From positions 1 through 28,448 of the IMG/VR virus record IMGVR_UViG_3300038317_000064: a stretch of 28,448 nucleotides of DNA. The stretch is one strand, 5' to 3'. This document shows, piece by piece, positions 1,511-10,978 of this stretch. Origin of the DNA: a virus. Taxonomy: Duplodnaviria; Caudoviricetes. The notes beneath the pieces were generated by a model. It had not been told where the DNA came from and did no database searches. It worked only from the letters and a program-made list of their open reading frames with translations. The first letter of the stretch is position 1; every line of letters starts with the position of its first letter. Made by a program: the position numbers and the translations under genes.

Positions 1511-2164
1511 TTAGTTAAAAAGTTTATAAAAATCTAAAATCAACTTGGGCGGCTCATTAACGGGAGTGGAAGCGTCCGGCTCCTGTCCGAGTGTCAAAAA
1601 TTGTTCTAATGATTTAAGTATGTTGTCTGAAAATCTTTCGTTATATGCTTTTTCTATCAGTCTCCAGAATTCCTCCTGGTTGGGCTCTGACAGGTCTTTC
1701 ACGGCCTTTACCGTGTCAATTAGTGAATATTCGTTGGCGGGATCGTCGGTGGTTAATACTGAAATCTCCTTTAACTTGTACTCGGCTACCTCTGATTTAT
1801 TCTTTGTGCCTCTTTTAACTATCCACCCCCCTATTGACAGCCCGCTTTCAAATCCGTTCTCTTTTAAAAACTTAGTCTCCAACCATGCGTTTCTACCGGC
1901 CTCTGTCTCCATAGCCATCTGCGCTACCATCTTCAATCCGTATGTATCTGCTATATCAAGCTCGGTTGGTACTCCAACCAATCCCGGTTGGTGGTTCTTG
2001 AATATCTTTATCTTGTTCTTTCGCTCGGTAACGGTCTTTGCGAATGATCCAGGCAGGGATATATCCCCGTCTGAATCTTTTACATTGTAAACGTTTGCAT
2101 ATCCAACTATAATCCCGTCCGATATGTCCTGTATTTCACTTAAGGTCTTGATTATTGCTTCCAT
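1511..2164 (-). CDS. HK97-family prohead protease (probable start 2164; ORF track start 2200)
   Basis: GYANVYNVKDSDGD..PGSF, NH, GLSIG and LKEISV motifs of Caudovirus prohead serine proteases. Confidence 0.92.
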   Translation of the reverse strand: MEAIIKTLSEIQDISDGIIVGYANVYNVKDSDGDISLPGSFAKTVTERKNKIKIFKNHQPGLVGVPTELDIADTYGLKMVAQMAMETEAGRNAWLETKFLKENGFESGLSIGGWIVKRGTKNKSEVAEYKLKEISVLTTDDPANEYSLIDTVKAVKDLSEPNQEEFWRLIEKAYNERFSDNILKSLEQFLTLGQEPDASTPVNEPPKLILDFYKLFN

Positions 2165-2165
2165 A

Positions 2166-2897
2166 TTATTTCCATCTTTTATATAAAACTTGACAGCCAC
2201 AGTTTATCACGTTTCCTGCGCTTGCGTTAAGGTCGTGCGGGTGTTTCATGTGGTCTGTTTTTCCTGTGTTCGGGTCAGTTACAGACCATGTCTCTTCTTT
2301 TCGTATCATCGTTCCGTTATCTAAAGACAAGTGCCAGTCTCGAGGGTCTTTCGCTCCACGGTGAATCCATATCTTGCCTATCTCTCTCCCCGAATCTCTC
2401 TCCCAGTCATCCGCACTTTTGGTTTTAGAAATATTTACGGCGTTAGCTGTTTCCGTGCGAGCAATCATTAAGGCCCTTTTTGCGGATGCAATTCCTCCAT
2501 TTTTTATTCTTTGTGCAATAACCTCAAATTCCAACCCCTCGGCGGTGGCTCTCTCTGATATGTGTCTTAGCCTTTCTCTTGTGGTGTCGTCTATGTCTGT
2601 TACTTTTTTGGCTAAATTCGCTTCCTTGAATACCTGAATCCATATTAACCATTCGCTTAAAAAGAATCCAGCCTTTACGGTCTCTCCCTCAAGTTGCTTC
2701 CATTGCCTTGGGAGAAAGAATGTCATCACCTCGTCGTATAGCTCGCTGATTACCGGGTATAGTGCGTTATTGATATCTCCGTGCTTCAAAAAGTGTTCGG
2801 ATTGCTCAATTAGAGCTCTGCGGATGGCTTTGGCGTGCCTCTTTTCGTAAGAAGCAATTATCCTGTCCTCAATCTGTGCCATCCTCCTGAAATTCAT
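2166..2897 (-). CDS. Head morphogenesis/minor head protein (Mu gpF / SPP1 gp7-like)
   Basis: RALMIARTET, KIW....D.R.WH..LD and C-terminal HPHD...A.NVINCGC motifs. Confidence 0.88.
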   Translation of the reverse strand: MNFRRMAQIEDRIIASYEKRHAKAIRRALIEQSEHFLKHGDINNALYPVISELYDEVMTFFLPRQWKQLEGETVKAGFFLSEWLIWIQVFKEANLAKKVTDIDDTTRERLRHISERATAEGLEFEVIAQRIKNGGIASAKRALMIARTETANAVNISKTKSADDWERDSGREIGKIWIHRGAKDPRDWHLSLDNGTMIRKEETWSVTDPNTGKTDHMKHPHDLNASAGNVINCGCQVLYKRWK

Positions 2898-3106
2898 AAC
2901 TTGTCCTTTATAACTATGAAAAAATCATCCCCGGAATACCCTATAATTCTATCGATGAATAGTGCTATATCAAGCATCATATCCCAGAACTTGTTAACTC
3001 CTGTCACGTGAGCACCGTCTATCAGTTGGCTCACGAACACAGGAATGAATCCGTACATTATTCCTCTATGTGTATATCCTAATTTTTCCGCCTCTTTCTC
3101 CGTCAT
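2894..3106 (-). CDS. Hypothetical protein between portal and gpF-like genes
   Basis: 70 aa ORF with 4-nt ATGA overlaps to both neighbours. Confidence 0.7.
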   Translation of the reverse strand: MTEKEAEKLGYTHRGIMYGFIPVFVSQLIDGAHVTGVNKFWDMMLDIALFIDRIIGYSGDDFFIVIKDKL

Positions 3107-4386
3107 ACGTTATAGTCGCTTAGTGGTACTAAACCCTGCTGAATGAATATCTCGTTTGCATATGGTTCTTCGCTCTCGTCAGATCCCTGCATTACTCTTA
3201 CCTCGTTGATCGAATGTGTTTTTAGAAACGCTTCTACCTGCGTGTCTGAAATCCTTAGTTCTTCATAAGAGGAAAGGTCGTAGTCGATTATATATGTTTT
3301 GTTGTCTCTATTCGAAAAAGGTTCTACCAGCCATTTGTTCAGCTTGTCCTCCTCCAATGAAAGGTAAGGCAGCACAACATCCATAACAAGTCTCAATCTT
3401 CCCTCTCTTGCGTTCTGGTAGGTAGGATTAGGATCGAACAAGACCGCAGGAACGTTCCACAGGTCGCACAATTTAACCCCTGCGTGCTCTAATCCCTTTA
3501 CGATGTTTAGTGCGTCTGGTGACAGCCCTATGTGAGTGTATTGAAGTGGCATTCCAGAAACGACAATCTTGTTCTTGTTGTCCGCTCCGTGTATCTTCGT
3601 TTCTACCGTTGTTTGTGTGCTCTCTACCTGATCAGGTGTCAACCATAAATTTGGATCTGCATGGTTTGGTGAAATTAGTCCCTTTGCCCCCTCGTTCTCT
3701 ACAGACTTAATCCAGCTTTGAATTGCGGAATCGTCAAGCTGAAGATATTTAAGCCCGGCTAAAAGAGGGCTCATTCCCCTTAGTTGTGTTCCCGAAGCGT
3801 CGAATACGGGGTTTGGCATCTTCAAATGAAAAACATCACCTGCCGGGATCTCCCTCGTAAGTCCGTTAAACAGATTGAGCTTCCACGCTACCAGCCCCTC
3901 CGAGCTCACCACTTGTGTCATTAAATGAGCAGGAACTACGTGCAAACTTAACGCACAATCGTCATCCCCTGCCTCCCTGTAAATGAATGTTTCGCCCTGA
4001 ACGAAATAAAATATCCTCGCAAGAGTGATGAACTCCCTCCATGTCTGTAACGTGTTCGGGTTTTTGAGTAGTTTTACAAGATCGTTATCCTCCGGGGCGT
4101 ACTTTAATTCCTTATGCACGTAAAGCCTATGTTTGGCTACCGATATGTCGCTGTCCTTTCTCGATTTTGACTTAACTCCTTTTGAATCGATATAAACGTA
4201 TGGTGTTGATGCCGCACACTTGTCCGTAATCTTCTTGATGATTGAATATATCTCCCCGTTAGACGTGTACCCCTTTGAAATGTAGTCCTCGGCGTTGTAG
4301 TTGTACAATACAACAGGTGAATTGCCTATAAATGTGGAGTACAGGAACGACTTCGATACTTTATTTTTTCTTCTGAATAATCTCAT
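3103..4386 (-). CDS. Phage portal protein (HK97 family)
   Basis: 427 aa; LLKNPN..QT..EF, G..FIY, DVFHLK, RGMSPL and SINEVR motifs; follows TerL. Confidence 0.93.
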   Translation of the reverse strand: MRLFRRKNKVSKSFLYSTFIGNSPVVLYNYNAEDYISKGYTSNGEIYSIIKKITDKCAASTPYVYIDSKGVKSKSRKDSDISVAKHRLYVHKELKYAPEDNDLVKLLKNPNTLQTWREFITLARIFYFVQGETFIYREAGDDDCALSLHVVPAHLMTQVVSSEGLVAWKLNLFNGLTREIPAGDVFHLKMPNPVFDASGTQLRGMSPLLAGLKYLQLDDSAIQSWIKSVENEGAKGLISPNHADPNLWLTPDQVESTQTTVETKIHGADNKNKIVVSGMPLQYTHIGLSPDALNIVKGLEHAGVKLCDLWNVPAVLFDPNPTYQNAREGRLRLVMDVVLPYLSLEEDKLNKWLVEPFSNRDNKTYIIDYDLSSYEELRISDTQVEAFLKTHSINEVRVMQGSDESEEPYANEIFIQQGLVPLSDYNV

Positions 4387-6050
4387 CTTATTGCAAATGA
4401 AAATTTGTGTTTCGGATTTAATGAATAGCGCAAAGCATCTATACCGTGATTATACATGTCGATAGGCTTGTTCGTCGGGTTGCCGTCCTTATCCAAGGCC
4501 CAACTGTACGACCTTAGCTCTTTTATCAGGTTGGTGCTTCTCTGTGTTACGTAAATAGGTCTGCTCTGAAGTCTGTCAATACCCGTCCTGACGCTGTCAG
4601 CACCCTTTACGGCGGGTTTTATGTTAAATCCAGCATTGTGTATCTCCTGAATACTTTTAGGCTCTGCGCTGTCTGCAATGATCTCGTCGTAGCTTTTCCT
4701 TATTCCTAATGATTCAAGTCTATTGATGATATGAGAGTTTAGCATACCTGTTTGATATATTAGCTCGTCTACGTAGTACGCTTCATCTGTTTCGATTGTC
4801 GCTACTAAAGAGGTGGGGTCGCAATTATGAACTAAAATCCCGTTAGCAAAGTATTCATGAGCATCTTCAATTTCTAAATCGTAAACGTCGCAATAAAAAC
4901 TACGAACGTTTTTTACGTTTATTAATCCCTGATAATTTATGTGCGTGTTCATTTGAACAGCATTTTGGCTTAAGGTATTTATTCCCTTGAAAAACCTCTC
5001 CACAATACTGGCTAAAATAATAGTTTGCATGCTTTCCTGATGGGTATCGGTTGTACTTTTCTCCTTTAAACTCGATTGTACACACAATACGTCCCTCTCT
5101 GTTAATTCTCCGTACTTCTTCCATTTTCCGTTAGCATAAAAATGATGTTCATGTGTTGCACAAATATTTGTGCTCAAAGCATCTGTTATTAATTTTTTCT
5201 CAATTACTTTTTTATATCCGTTATAGATGGTTCTTTTTACGAGCCTATATCCTTTACGTGTTAAAACTAAATCACCCTTTTTTACGTCTTTGATTTGAAT
5301 TAATCCTTTAGATGTAGTAATCAATGTTTCTCCACTAAAACAGCTAAACCCGAAATCTAACCCGTATATCTTATCACCTTCAGGCATCCTATCCACCTGC
5401 ATCCAGTTTGAAAAAATGATCCCCTCGGTTACGCCGTATTCGCAGTCAATGTGAATCCGCCTGAAGTTTTCGTCCCTGGATGCTCTTTTGGCGATCCTGT
5501 TTTTTTCGGTCTCAGGAAGAAAGGGATTATCTAAGTAGTTAGATTTAATGGTTAAAACTTTATCGTAGTTTGCTGCCCAGTCCTCAACCCAGAATTGAGC
5601 GGTCGGGTTGAAGTCGGCTATCACGTTTTCCGTCCGTCTCGCAAGCTCATCCCAAACATCTTTTTTCAATGAGTTGATCTCGTTTCCGTATAACCAGTCT
5701 CTACGTGCTCCAAGTGCCTTGTCGATACGGTCAGCGGAAAAGAACTCGATTATCGTTCCGGTTGGTGAAGTCCATGTCGATTTTGATATGTTCCAGTTCT
5801 CTTTCCCCCAAAGATTTAAAGGTTTGCATATTCCGGAAAGTATTCTTATAGCTCCTATTTCCAGGTGCGGCCTACTCTCCGAAACAACGGTAATGATCAG
5901 ATCGGGATGGGTTACCGCTACTGAAAAAAGATATAACATGTTGTCATATGTCTTTCCCGATCCCGTTCCTCCACGGTGGATGCAAATCTTAAAACCGTCG
6001 TCAAAGGCCTGACGGGTCTTATTGTATATCGTCCCCGTCTTTATTTCCAT
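4383..6050 (-). CDS. terL: Terminase large subunit (PBSX-like) interrupted by an intein
   Basis: Walker A GGTGSGKT, NE, DFNP, NYLDNPFL, nuclease GLDFG, ADSAEPKSI, NHGIDALRY. Predicted 382 aa after removing the 173-aa intein. Confidence 0.95.
   Translation of the reverse strand: MEIKTGTIYNKTRQAFDDGFKICIHRGGTGSGKTYDNMLYLFSVAVTHPDLIITVVSESRPHLEIGAIRILSGICKPLNLWGKENWNISKSTWTSPTGTIIEFFSADRIDKALGARRDWLYGNEINSLKKDVWDELARRTENVIADFNPTAQFWVEDWAANYDKVLTIKSNYLDNPFLPETEKNRIAKRASRDENFRRIHIDCEYGVTEGIIFSNWMQVDRMPEGDKIYGLDFGFSCFSGETLITTSKGLIQIKDVKKGDLVLTRKGYRLVKRTIYNGYKKVIEKKLITDALSTNICATHEHHFYANGKWKKYGELTERDVLCVQSSLKEKSTTDTHQESMQTIILASIVERFFKGINTLSQNAVQMNTHINYQGLINVKNVRSFYCDVYDLEIEDAHEYFANGILVHNCDPTSLVATIETDEAYYVDELIYQTGMLNSHIINRLESLGIRKSYDEIIADSAEPKSIQEIHNAGFNIKPAVKGADSVRTGIDRLQSRPIYVTQRSTNLIKELRSYSWALDKDGNPTNKPIDMYNHGIDALRYSLNPKHKFSFAIR
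4824..5342 (-). mobile_element. Intein (173 aa, no in-frame homing endonuclease) in the TerL nuclease domain
   Basis: Starts CFSGETLITT (block A), has ATHEH (block B TxxH) and DVYDLEIEDAHEYFANGILVHN (blocks F/G); +1 residue is Cys. Junction GLDFGFS|CDPT. Confidence 0.95.
4900..5124 (-). CDS. Alternate-frame ORF nested in the intein; probable remnant of an out-of-frame homing endonuclease
   Basis: 74 aa, same strand as TerL but a different frame, lying between intein blocks B and F. Contains EFKGEKYNRYP..YY, a degenerate Zn-finger (SQYCGEVF...KCCSNEH) and a basic tail. Confidence 0.55.
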   Translation of the reverse strand: MEEVRRINREGRIVCTIEFKGEKYNRYPSGKHANYYFSQYCGEVFQGNKYLKPKCCSNEHAHKLSGINKRKKRS

Positions 6051-6438
6051 AATTTATGAATTTGATGTTTAGGCCTGAAATCTCCTGCTTGATCGGATCT
6101 TTGCCGAAAATCCTGTCTATGAGCTTTTCCGTGTTTGTAAGGTTTTTGTTGTCAATGTCTCCTGCTATCGATGATGCTATGATGATGACAGCTATGGGTG
6201 TTTTATTGTCGCTCGCTATCGATTTTAATTCTTCTGGAGTTAACGATAAAAGGTGAGCGATGATGTTGTTGTAATCCTCCCTCGTTAGTGGCTCCTCGTT
6301 GGCTGTTCTTAGCTGGCTTATAATCTGCTTGAAACGTGACGGCTTCCTGCCTCTTGATTCTGGCTGATAGTCGGATGTGAATTGGGTGTCCTTCCCAAAT
6401 TCATTACCAATATCGAATGTTCCATCATCTCTTCTCAT
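6019..6438 (-). CDS. terS: Terminase small subunit (putative)
   Basis: Immediately upstream of TerL; N-terminal DGTF..GN.FG..TQF....QP..RGR and C-terminal L.DR.FGK..KQEISG patterns typical of TerS. Confidence 0.8.
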   Translation of the reverse strand: MRRDDGTFDIGNEFGKDTQFTSDYQPESRGRKPSRFKQIISQLRTANEEPLTREDYNNIIAHLLSLTPEELKSIASDNKTPIAVIIIASSIAGDIDNKNLTNTEKLIDRIFGKDPIKQEISGLNIKFINYGNKDGDDIQ

Positions 6439-6573: not shown

Positions 6574-7275
6574 CTATAATTTTTTAATCAAATCCCAAAG
6601 CTGTTTTCCCCTTAGGGATTTGTTCCGTTTAAATTCCTTGTTTATTGTCTTGTATTTTTCAATTATCTCTTTGTGATAACATAAATGAAAGTCGTACAGA
6701 CCTGGGTTTTCTTCAATTGTGAATTGCTCTATGTTGCTCGAGCTTCTTAAATTCGCCGAACCGTGAATTACTATCTTCTTTTTCCCGGCTGTTTCAAAAA
6801 GTACTATTTTTGTATGCGATCCTGCTGAGGCCAATTGGAACCTGTCGTCTATGTCTAATTTGTCGTATATGTATGGTATCAGTGATTTTCTTTCATGTGC
6901 GAAAAAGTAATCCGATACTATCATGTTAAGGTTATCTACAAACTTTCCATCCATCAAATTAACAAGGCTATCTACGTTATTTTGATCTAACGAAAGCGTT
7001 GATATTGTCATTTCTGTACACTTTGCGTTGTTGTGAGTTATAAACGCCTCTATAAAATCACCAAAAATAAAATTACCTGCAACGATAGCATCATACCTTA
7101 TCCCTGTGTCAAGCTTGATGTCTCTTGCAAGCTTTTGAGCGTTTGAGTATTTTATTTTATGCGCTGGCAAGTCTCTTGCTATCTTTGATTTTTTATAACG
7201 GTTTTTAAATCCGTTATCCATCATCGGTATATCTAAATCAAAATCGTTTATTTCAATGTTAAAATCAAACTCCAT
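6574..7275 (-). CDS. Phospholipase D-superfamily (single HKD-like motif) protein, putative nuclease
   Basis: HTKIVLFET...IHGSANL..S.NIE matches HxK(x4)D/E...GSxN...N.E. Confidence 0.75.
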   Translation of the reverse strand: MEFDFNIEINDFDLDIPMMDNGFKNRYKKSKIARDLPAHKIKYSNAQKLARDIKLDTGIRYDAIVAGNFIFGDFIEAFITHNNAKCTEMTISTLSLDQNNVDSLVNLMDGKFVDNLNMIVSDYFFAHERKSLIPYIYDKLDIDDRFQLASAGSHTKIVLFETAGKKKIVIHGSANLRSSSNIEQFTIEENPGLYDFHLCYHKEIIEKYKTINKEFKRNKSLRGKQLWDLIKKL

Positions 7276-9796: not shown

Positions 9797-10978
9797 TCAG
9801 TTTGCTTTAAAATTATAAATAGGTGTTATTATTTCAACAATTTCAACTGTATCGAAAATAGCGCCAATAATTTCATCCATAGATTTATATGCTTGCGGAG
9901 CCTCATCAATAGTAGATTCATTTACCGAAGTTGAGAATACATTGCCCATCGATTCAGAATATTCATCCATTGATATCATTTCTTTTGCCTTTGAACGGCT
10001 CATTAACCGGCCGGCACCGTGCGGAGCGGAATAGTTCCAGTCCTCATTCCCTTTTCCCCTACAAATCAATGATCCATCACGCATATTGATAGGGATAAGC
10101 AATATTTCCCCGGCTTCGGCGCTTACAGCACCCTTCCGAAGGATCATGTTCCGGATATCGATATAATTGTGAATAGTTTCGAACTGATCAGCAACATTCA
10201 ATCCCGTTTCTTTGAGTATGACTTCAGCCATCATTTTACGGTTCAGGGAGGCGAAATTTTGAACGATCTTCATATCGTTGATATAATCCTCAAAATCCTG
10301 CTTTTCGACGAAAGCAAGGTCTTTATTTGCTTTCGGCTTTTGAAGCTTCTTCAATTCTGTATCGATATCTTTTTCCCGGCCTTGCCGCTTCAGGTACTCA
10401 ATGAGTTTGCATTTGATAGTGCTCATCTCATTGACATTTTTCCATGCCAGATCCTGATAATACTTGCAGACATTTACGCCTAAATTCCTGCTCCCGGAGT
10501 GGATGACAAGGTATAAATTCCCGTTATCATCCCGGTCAACTTCTATGAAGTGGTTCCCGCCCCCAAGTGTACCAATCGACAACATTGCACGCTCCAGATC
10601 CGCATGTTTCGCACATCGCAATTCGGAGAAATCAAATTTCGCAATAGATCTATCCCTGATAGAAAATCCGGAAGGGACATGACCCCTGATAATCTGGTCG
10701 AGTTTATGCAAGTCGATATCTTTTTCTTTCAGTTTAGTTGTAAGCATCCCGCAACCGATATCAACTCCGACCAAATTTGGGGTAACCTTATCTGTTATTG
10801 TCATAGTAGTGCCAACCGTACAACCCTTACCCGCATGAGCATCCGGCATAATTCGTATTTTTGAATTCAAATACGGCTCGAAATTTGCCAGCGATTTTAT
10901 TTGATCGTAAGCCTCATATTCAAATGTTTCTGCATAAATCTTTACCTCATTTCCAATGCTGTTCTTAATCTTTTTCAT
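9797..10978 (-). CDS. rtcB: RtcB-family RNA ligase
   Basis: MPDAHAG.G..VG, GVDIGCG, GTLGGGNHF.E, HSGSR, HN, RKGA, SAPHGAGR and DEAP.AYK motifs are all present. Confidence 0.97.
   Translation of the reverse strand: MKKIKNSIGNEVKIYAETFEYEAYDQIKSLANFEPYLNSKIRIMPDAHAGKGCTVGTTMTITDKVTPNLVGVDIGCGMLTTKLKEKDIDLHKLDQIIRGHVPSGFSIRDRSIAKFDFSELRCAKHADLERAMLSIGTLGGGNHFIEVDRDDNGNLYLVIHSGSRNLGVNVCKYYQDLAWKNVNEMSTIKCKLIEYLKRQGREKDIDTELKKLQKPKANKDLAFVEKQDFEDYINDMKIVQNFASLNRKMMAEVILKETGLNVADQFETIHNYIDIRNMILRKGAVSAEAGEILLIPINMRDGSLICRGKGNEDWNYSAPHGAGRLMSRSKAKEMISMDEYSESMGNVFSTSVNESTIDEAPQAYKSMDEIIGAIFDTVEIVEIITPIYNFKAN

Follow-up and report, generated by a model that had tools for sequence, protein, structure and literature searches.

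We found that the large terminase subunit gene (terL) of a tailed phage very probably contains an intein whose homing nuclease is encoded as a separate HNH gene in frame +2, and that the copy described here is a recent version of this element that has lost 402 nt by deletion. The DNA analyzed, referred to as the window, comprises all 28,448 nt of IMG/VR record IMGVR_UViG_3300038317_000064. The terL gene lies on the minus strand at 4383..6050, as do all features of the element given below, and encodes a terminase precursor of 555 amino acids (aa), intein included, that matches Terminase_3 and Terminase_3C. Within it, a class 1 intein of 173 aa (4824..5342; Pfam Intein_splicing, 1.7e-11) holds a same-strand open reading frame (ORF) of 74 aa at 4900..5124. 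This ORF starts at ATG 5124, 218 nt into the intein, and runs in frame +2 (equivalent to -1) to a stop at 4900; it begins 7 codons past the block B His and ends 7 codons short of the block F Asp. An earlier, sequence-only reading had described this nesting between the two blocks, and the coordinates, the Hint domain, and the homologues agree that the intein and the ORF are real. It had also taken the ORF for an internally deleted relic of a longer gene, with an HNH core once located between the residues YYF and CGEVF.

Both proposals were borne out by a phage 98.6% identical to the window, which has a 307-aa intein allele containing a whole 208-aa HNH_3 gene in the same frame (this undeleted allele is present in L001 and L053). 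The core lies exactly between YYF and CGEVF. The window's intein is the L001 allele minus exactly 402 nt, in frame, with a 2-nt microhomology at the junction (5011..5013), and its nested ORF consists of residues 1 to 38 of the 208-aa protein fused to residues 173 to 208. Residues 39 to 172 are gone, and with them the HNH catalytic core and the first zinc-binding module; the last Cys-rich module has lost its first ligand, Cys172. Beyond the deletion, the relic and the full allele differ at 1 base in 519, outside the nested ORF. Longer alleles were also found more widely: five of six longer candidate homologues were HNH_3 proteins of the 206- to 216-aa class that match both ends of the relic. 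The worry that homologous inteins might show stops in the nuclease frame, or that no HNH-containing allele might exist, is therefore contradicted.

Taken by itself, the 74-aa ORF is only modestly beyond chance. When the intein protein was held fixed and synonymous codons were redrawn, the probability of an ATG-initiated ORF of at least 74 codons in frame +2 was 0.013, and that of a stop-free run as long as 74 codons was 0.067; stop-free runs of at least 74 codons in this frame occur in 3 of 11 long genes of the window, terL included. The ORF had no Pfam or PHROG match. These figures speak for a chance ORF, and the short allele might also be an artifact of assembly, the more so as one of the sequencing runs that contain it, X1, may be the window's source sample. 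Either explanation is extremely improbable, however, because the ORF is base for base part of the HNH_3 gene and because the contigs of the four sequencing runs that we compared with L001 contain the deletion and a second one. One contig of run X1 crosses the 402-nt joint at a depth of 139.5, with zero depth over the missing part, and the deletion allele dominates this run. Run X7, from the same study, has the full allele. Run X2 comes from another study and shows a second in-frame deletion, of 462 nt, together with a low-depth piece of the full allele; run X6, from a third study, has a loose end consistent with the 462-nt joint. The two deletions, both multiples of three, leave remnants of 74 and 54 codons, the longer one removing most of the last Cys-rich module, and they represent two independent events. 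A further 496-nt contig of X1 skips 1334 letters with 413 between; the difference, 921, is the intein length. An intein-free but divergent relative is therefore present in X1, although the short side of this contig is 30 letters and it may come from another phage.

Selection on the two frames was seen in the wider family. Nuclease profile searches returned 86 loci, which became 87 loci with 36 distinct sequences after L001 and L004 were added and one duplicate was removed. The 36 comprise 29 complete TerL inteins whose host frame is open, 1 truncated at a contig end, 3 with 1- to 2-nt deletions resembling assembly errors, and 3 located outside inteins. Twenty-seven full alleles were analyzed, leaving out L004 and the near-duplicate L049. 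Across the nuclease gene, the intein frame has no stops in any of the 27, against 4.9 to 9.0 expected (6.9 each), whereas the corresponding frame of the three nonintein relatives has 7, 11, and 12. For the third frame, the cost would be about 18 stops, which may explain the use of frame +2 both here and in the two published same-strand cases discussed below. The nuclease frame was more conserved than the intein frame in all 351 pairs (median, 51% versus 30%). The median ratio of nonsynonymous to synonymous substitution rates (dN/dS) was 0.31 in the nuclease frame and 1.16 in the intein frame, for 36 unsaturated pairs that are not independent of one another. Across the family, purifying selection thus acts on the nuclease frame and not on the linker. 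The suggestion that the intein-frame linker is an off-frame shadow agrees with this ratio of about 1.2, as well as with a predicted local distance difference test score (pLDDT) below 50 at residues 92 to 130 of the intein model. The nuclease had been called overprinted; it does lie in an alternate frame, but that wording is loose, since the nuclease gene is old and also has free-standing relatives, and the linker is the by-product. Such relatives are found directly behind terL at L081:228-842 and at L128:1967-2590 (Lactobacillus phage CL2), and may be donors or escaped forms.

The full nuclease of L001 scores 61.2 bits with HNH_3, compared to a curated cutoff of 24.8. Residues H67, H68, D70, N72, N75, N76, N80, H89, and H93 are kept in at least 26 of the 27 full alleles. 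The best structural match of residues 17 to 98 is I-HmuI (PDB 1u3e), at 18 to 19% identity. I-HmuI is an intron-encoded HNH endonuclease of a Bacillus phage and shares the HNH_3 core; the present enzymes differ in having two Cys-rich modules as their C-terminal part and in being encoded in an intein, out of frame. From its patchy spread and flanking tracts, the full nuclease is predicted to home by site-specific cleavage.

A second search used intein motifs and was blind to the nuclease; the best 80 of 428 matches were kept, giving 52 distinct sequences. Among these, 30 carry HNH_3 in frame +2, 20 are short inteins of 121 to 194 aa, and 2 were not placed. Every long intein in this sample carries HNH_3 (30 of 30), and none of the 30 matched EndoVII-like or LAGLIDADG nucleases. 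No in-frame domain was detected in the 28 linkers tested, and 34 of 45 host pieces match terminase families. Two such inteins occur in a single terL in L047 (1509-4835) and in L050 (654-3596), at the two insertion points called site a and site b below, each with its own frame +2 HNH-like gene of a different subfamily. The cultured Tetrasphaera phage TJE1 (HQ225832.1; L293:1994-2908) has a terL intein with an unannotated frame +2 ORF in which an HNH-like motif and Cys-rich modules were seen by eye, without a profile scan. In L002, TGA occurs in several long frames where Gly is expected, as in a recoded (table 25-like) phage, and the Cys-rich frame of its terL intein is in another phase.

Among the 20 short inteins from the best 80 of 428 matches, a frame +2 remnant was detected by profile in 6 and by eye in one more. 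The inteins of L149, L150, L153, L159, L164, L166, and L206 (at about 1501-2080) are 145 to 194 aa long and have frame +2 remnants, all seven of which keep the last Cys-rich module. This retention weighs against a functionless relic, with the qualification that the search was biased in that direction. One could propose that selection maintains the 74-aa remnant itself, for instance because the protein, catalytically dead, still binds DNA and thereby shields the site or competes with the full nuclease. The ATG, frame, and stop are intact, the deletion allele dominates X1, and the six profile-found remnants and the one seen by eye keep both an open frame and the last Cys-rich module. We nonetheless consider this very unlikely. 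First, the frame is open automatically, because deletions that spare TerL must be multiples of three, and the allele is recent; only 0.03 stops are expected in the relic because it differs from the full allele by 1 base in 519. The openness of both frames, which had been read as a hint of continued selection, does not support that reading. Second, the window's remnant is without Cys172, and the 462-nt deletion removes most of the module. Third, no relative of 40 to 130 aa was found among three candidates. Finally, the remnant-bearing matches were ranked with a query that contained the module's shadow. Selection on both frames was therefore found for the full-length alleles and not for the relic. 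The window's relic appears to be a recent, functionless intermediate with no selection of its own, and the intein, having lost its nuclease core, is likely no longer self-spreading.

The intein itself appears intact. It is inserted at DFGFS|CDP (site a), right after the DFG motif and just past the first catalytic-motif Asp of the RNase H-like domain of TerL. Cys1 is at 5342, the terminal His-Asn is at 4824, and the next residue is Cys (+1; 4821..4823), so that both end residues are those of a class 1 intein. The block B TxxH, the block F Asp, and the terminal His-Asn are functional motifs of class 1 inteins. The N-terminal Hint part (residues 1 to 91; 5070..5342), with Cys1 and the TxxH at residues 63 to 66, is confidently folded in the model. 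A linker predicted to be disordered (residues 92 to 130; 4953..5069) separates it from the C-terminal Hint part (residues 131 to 173; 4824..4952), which contains Asp155 and His172-Asn173. Cys1, T63, H66, D155, H172, and N173 are invariant in all 25 aligned inteins. The Hint fold was modeled with a predicted template modeling score of 0.73 and a pLDDT above 90 at 120 of 173 residues, and the closest structures are the Ssp DnaB and Mtu RecA inteins (E, 2e-8 to 4e-8). The nested gene overlaps folded Hint strands at either end. Given the intact motifs and the location in an essential gene, the 173-aa intein is predicted to be still able to splice. Two other arrangements were ruled out. The window and all 29 complete relatives have a single open frame, which excludes a split intein in a fractured gene, and the complete Hint domain excludes a ShiLan-type hidden HNH insertion, which would lack a self-splicing domain.

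How would the nested gene be expressed? In 25 of the 27 full alleles, the ATG is formed by an A-ending codon and a conserved Trp codon, and the other two start 30 nt later. The intein residue that supplies the A varies (Lys, Arg, Glu, Gly, or Ile), and the ATG is kept; AAA makes up only 43% of Lys codons in the extein. The start context is AU-rich and weakly folded. Its start score falls among those of the 46 starts predicted for the phage (39% of them score no higher) and is matched by 18% of other ATGs. From these features, internal initiation would be the likeliest route to the nuclease. A −1 ribosomal frameshift, yielding a fusion of the N-terminal part of TerL, the N-terminal part of the intein, and HNH, would fit the same-strand −1 frame and the lack of a Shine-Dalgarno-like motif upstream of the ATG in 27 of 27 alleles. 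This route is quite unlikely: none of the 27 has a slippery heptamer between 38 nt upstream and 23 nt downstream of the ATG, an in-frame stop precedes the ATG by 0 to 7 codons in 25 of 27 (directly in L047), and the ATG is kept though the residue supplying its A changes.

Traces of mobility surround the intein. Between the window and L001, the region 4694..5639 has a low density of single-nucleotide changes (1 in 946 nt, compared to 28 in 1232 nt outside it; P, 2e-6). This block is compatible with a recent shared transfer, although mosaic recombination could produce such clustering as well. L092, the closest intein-free allele, has 97% overall identity and differs in a patch reaching from about 50 nt before to about 100 nt after site a. 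The Cys+1 of the window likely arrived with the intein, because L092 has Asn at this position. Arrival of Cys+1 with the intein is described for a haloarchaeal intein in the accessible part of PMC10643990. Intein-free alleles with Cys exist elsewhere (4 loci). The divergent patch of L092 (at about 2490) reads Val-Asn-Asp-His in place of Ser-Asn-Asp-Pro and is possibly a resistant allele. The nuclease is always in or next to terL, as it would be if it were a packaging helper of the terminase in the manner of HK97 gp74 rather than a homing nuclease. That role is highly improbable, since core-less alleles are abundant, intein-free terL alleles lack such a gene, the element is patchily distributed, and it moves together with flanking tracts.

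Six of the 27 full alleles (L006, L037, L038, L065, L039, and L088, from gut phages and prophages) have their insertion point 363 nt downstream of site a, at NH|CIDA (site b). Their nucleases belong to the same subfamily as that of L001 (56 to 63% identical to it and 27 to 33% to the other subfamily), and in the nuclease tree they are nested among site a members (99/96 branch with L001 and L036). These six travel with a foreign block of about 400 nt that reaches back just past site a (inteins with blocks at L006:1870-3212 and, in the other five, at about 1900-3212). For example, L006 and the intein-free L280 are 98% identical upstream of −412 and about 72% identical from there to the intein; downstream, only the +1 codon differs, up to +71. 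The inteins of L037, L038, and L065 are 99.7 to 99.9% identical, and these loci remain near-identical back to −381, after which identity falls to 70 to 85%. In trees of 44 rows, the blocks of the six form one group (local support, 89), whereas their upstream segments scatter among intein-free alleles. The L006 type is present in 42 loci, mostly from human-gut collections, with 0 to 1 intein changes among the 35 with placed ends. Two controls were available. In the same background, the L278 group (8 loci) has a site b intein from the other subfamily and lacks a foreign block; the L278 and L286 inteins are 92% identical, and their flanks differ from −13 on. Among 47 intein-free alleles, such a break was found in 1 of 97 close pairs. 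At site b, all 48 intein-free alleles (L213 to L292) have Gly, Ala, or Leu at +1, and the carriers with a read end all have Cys.

The balance of this evidence leans slightly toward the HNH subfamily targeting site a from three positions: as an intein at site a, as a free-standing gene right behind terL (L081), and as an intein at site b. On the same footing, we somewhat favor the idea that the site b intein homes from a distant cut near site a, dragging along the approximately 400-nt block with a resistant site a; it is also a little more probable than its opposite that each such spread would replace the host's whole nuclease domain. Several points weigh against a distant cut. The block is exactly the nuclease domain, and purging of chimeras, or recombination being suppressed across so divergent a stretch, could hold it together; the six share one origin; and the way in which the loci were found accounts for part of the motif conservation. 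T4 SegG, a free-standing phage homing endonuclease, reportedly acts from a distance. Distant action is also described for the free-standing phage homing endonuclease MobE in the accessible part of its source, and collaborative homing is described in that of PMC10448857. These systems offer a likely model for the site b relatives and L081, with the cut made in one place and the element co-converted from another. SegG and MobE are free-standing genes, whereas the present gene lies within an intein, and inteins normally destroy their own target by inserting into it. If true, homing from a distant cut would break the rule that an intein nuclease cuts its own insertion site, and an intein may then colonize a new site without retargeting. 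It would be new for inteins; no paper describing it was found in a literature search mostly outside subscription journals.

Elsewhere in the window, terL has a putative terS on one side and the portal gene on the other, and head, portal, terminase, replication, and lysis genes identify the window as part of a tailed-phage genome. Named relatives are mostly Bacteroidota (3 of 4 genome records). At 6019-6438, the putative terS is replaced by unrelated sequence in L001, with both flanks 98.8% identical; the window form is present in L092 and in runs X1, X2, and X6. An RtcB-like RNA ligase gene among the early genes (9797-10978) is a possible counter to tRNA-cleaving defense. A 233-aa ORF upstream of the packaging genes (6574-7275) had no PHROG match; by eye, it has a motif that we take to be HxK-like.

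The two-frame layout is already in print for other nuclease types. An intein with a same-strand out-of-frame homing endonuclease has a continuous intein frame and a frame +2 nuclease, and both are found here. One preprint describes out-of-frame, EndoVII-like intein nucleases, counts HNH only as in-frame, lists terminase among the hosts of noncanonical inteins, and predicts decay to mini-inteins (Gosselin; 10.1101/2025.01.02.630785). The present element resembles those in its continuous intein and in a nuclease that has a same-strand frame of its own, offset by the same amount; it differs in its HNH_3, putatively I-HmuI-like nuclease with Cys-rich modules, in nested ends that overlap folded Hint strands, and in visible decay intermediates. 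A cyanobacterial dnaX intein with a +2-frame LAGLIDADG nuclease (Phillips, DeSimone, Gogarten; 10.64898/2026.09.14.751524) is, in the accessible part of that source, alike in frame offset, disordered in-frame linker, frame-dependent dN/dS, and the presence of full, mini, and empty alleles in one population. It differs in being in a cellular gene, in its nuclease type, and in Shine-Dalgarno-like motifs, compared to a phage terL, an HNH nuclease, and no such motif here. ShiLan-type elements, as the available text of PMC11855218 describes them, hide an HNH gene in another frame of a host gene that stays open but have no splicing domain; here, a complete Hint domain would remove the shadow peptide. 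In the fractured genes of Dassa et al. 2009 (PMC2677866), again from the part accessible, a nuclease gene lies between Hint halves in phage genes and the intein is split into two genes, whereas here the frame is continuous. No paper on an out-of-frame HNH nuclease inside an intein was found in a search that was mostly outside subscription journals and did not cover the supplements of the two preprints, which may list HNH cases. New here are the allele series of full, two deleted, and intein-free forms and the gut-phage relatives at site b whose inteins are always accompanied by the foreign block.

A homing cycle can be proposed from these alleles. TerL would be translated without interruption across the intein, disordered shadow linker included, and would then undergo class 1 splicing. 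In full alleles, initiation at the internal ATG, formed by the A-ending and Trp codons, would produce the I-HmuI-like nuclease as a free protein of 208 aa that has two Cys-rich modules. In a mixed infection, this nuclease would nick or cut an intein-free terL near site a, and repair would copy the intein along with short flanking stretches that include Cys+1. With few or resistant targets, deletions would remove the nuclease, and only those that are multiples of three and spare the folded Hint strands would survive. The open but functionless remnant would be a stage on the way to a mini-intein. The published layout limits the surprise, and the window's own copy is dead. Even so, the finding would mean that an intact nuclease has been overlooked in many phage inteins whose middle domain is annotated as degenerate or unknown. 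The alleles, one full, two independently deleted, and one intein-free in the same kind of community, form a natural set for the homing cycle, and they catch in the act the decay that the first preprint (10.1101/2025.01.02.630785) called missing.
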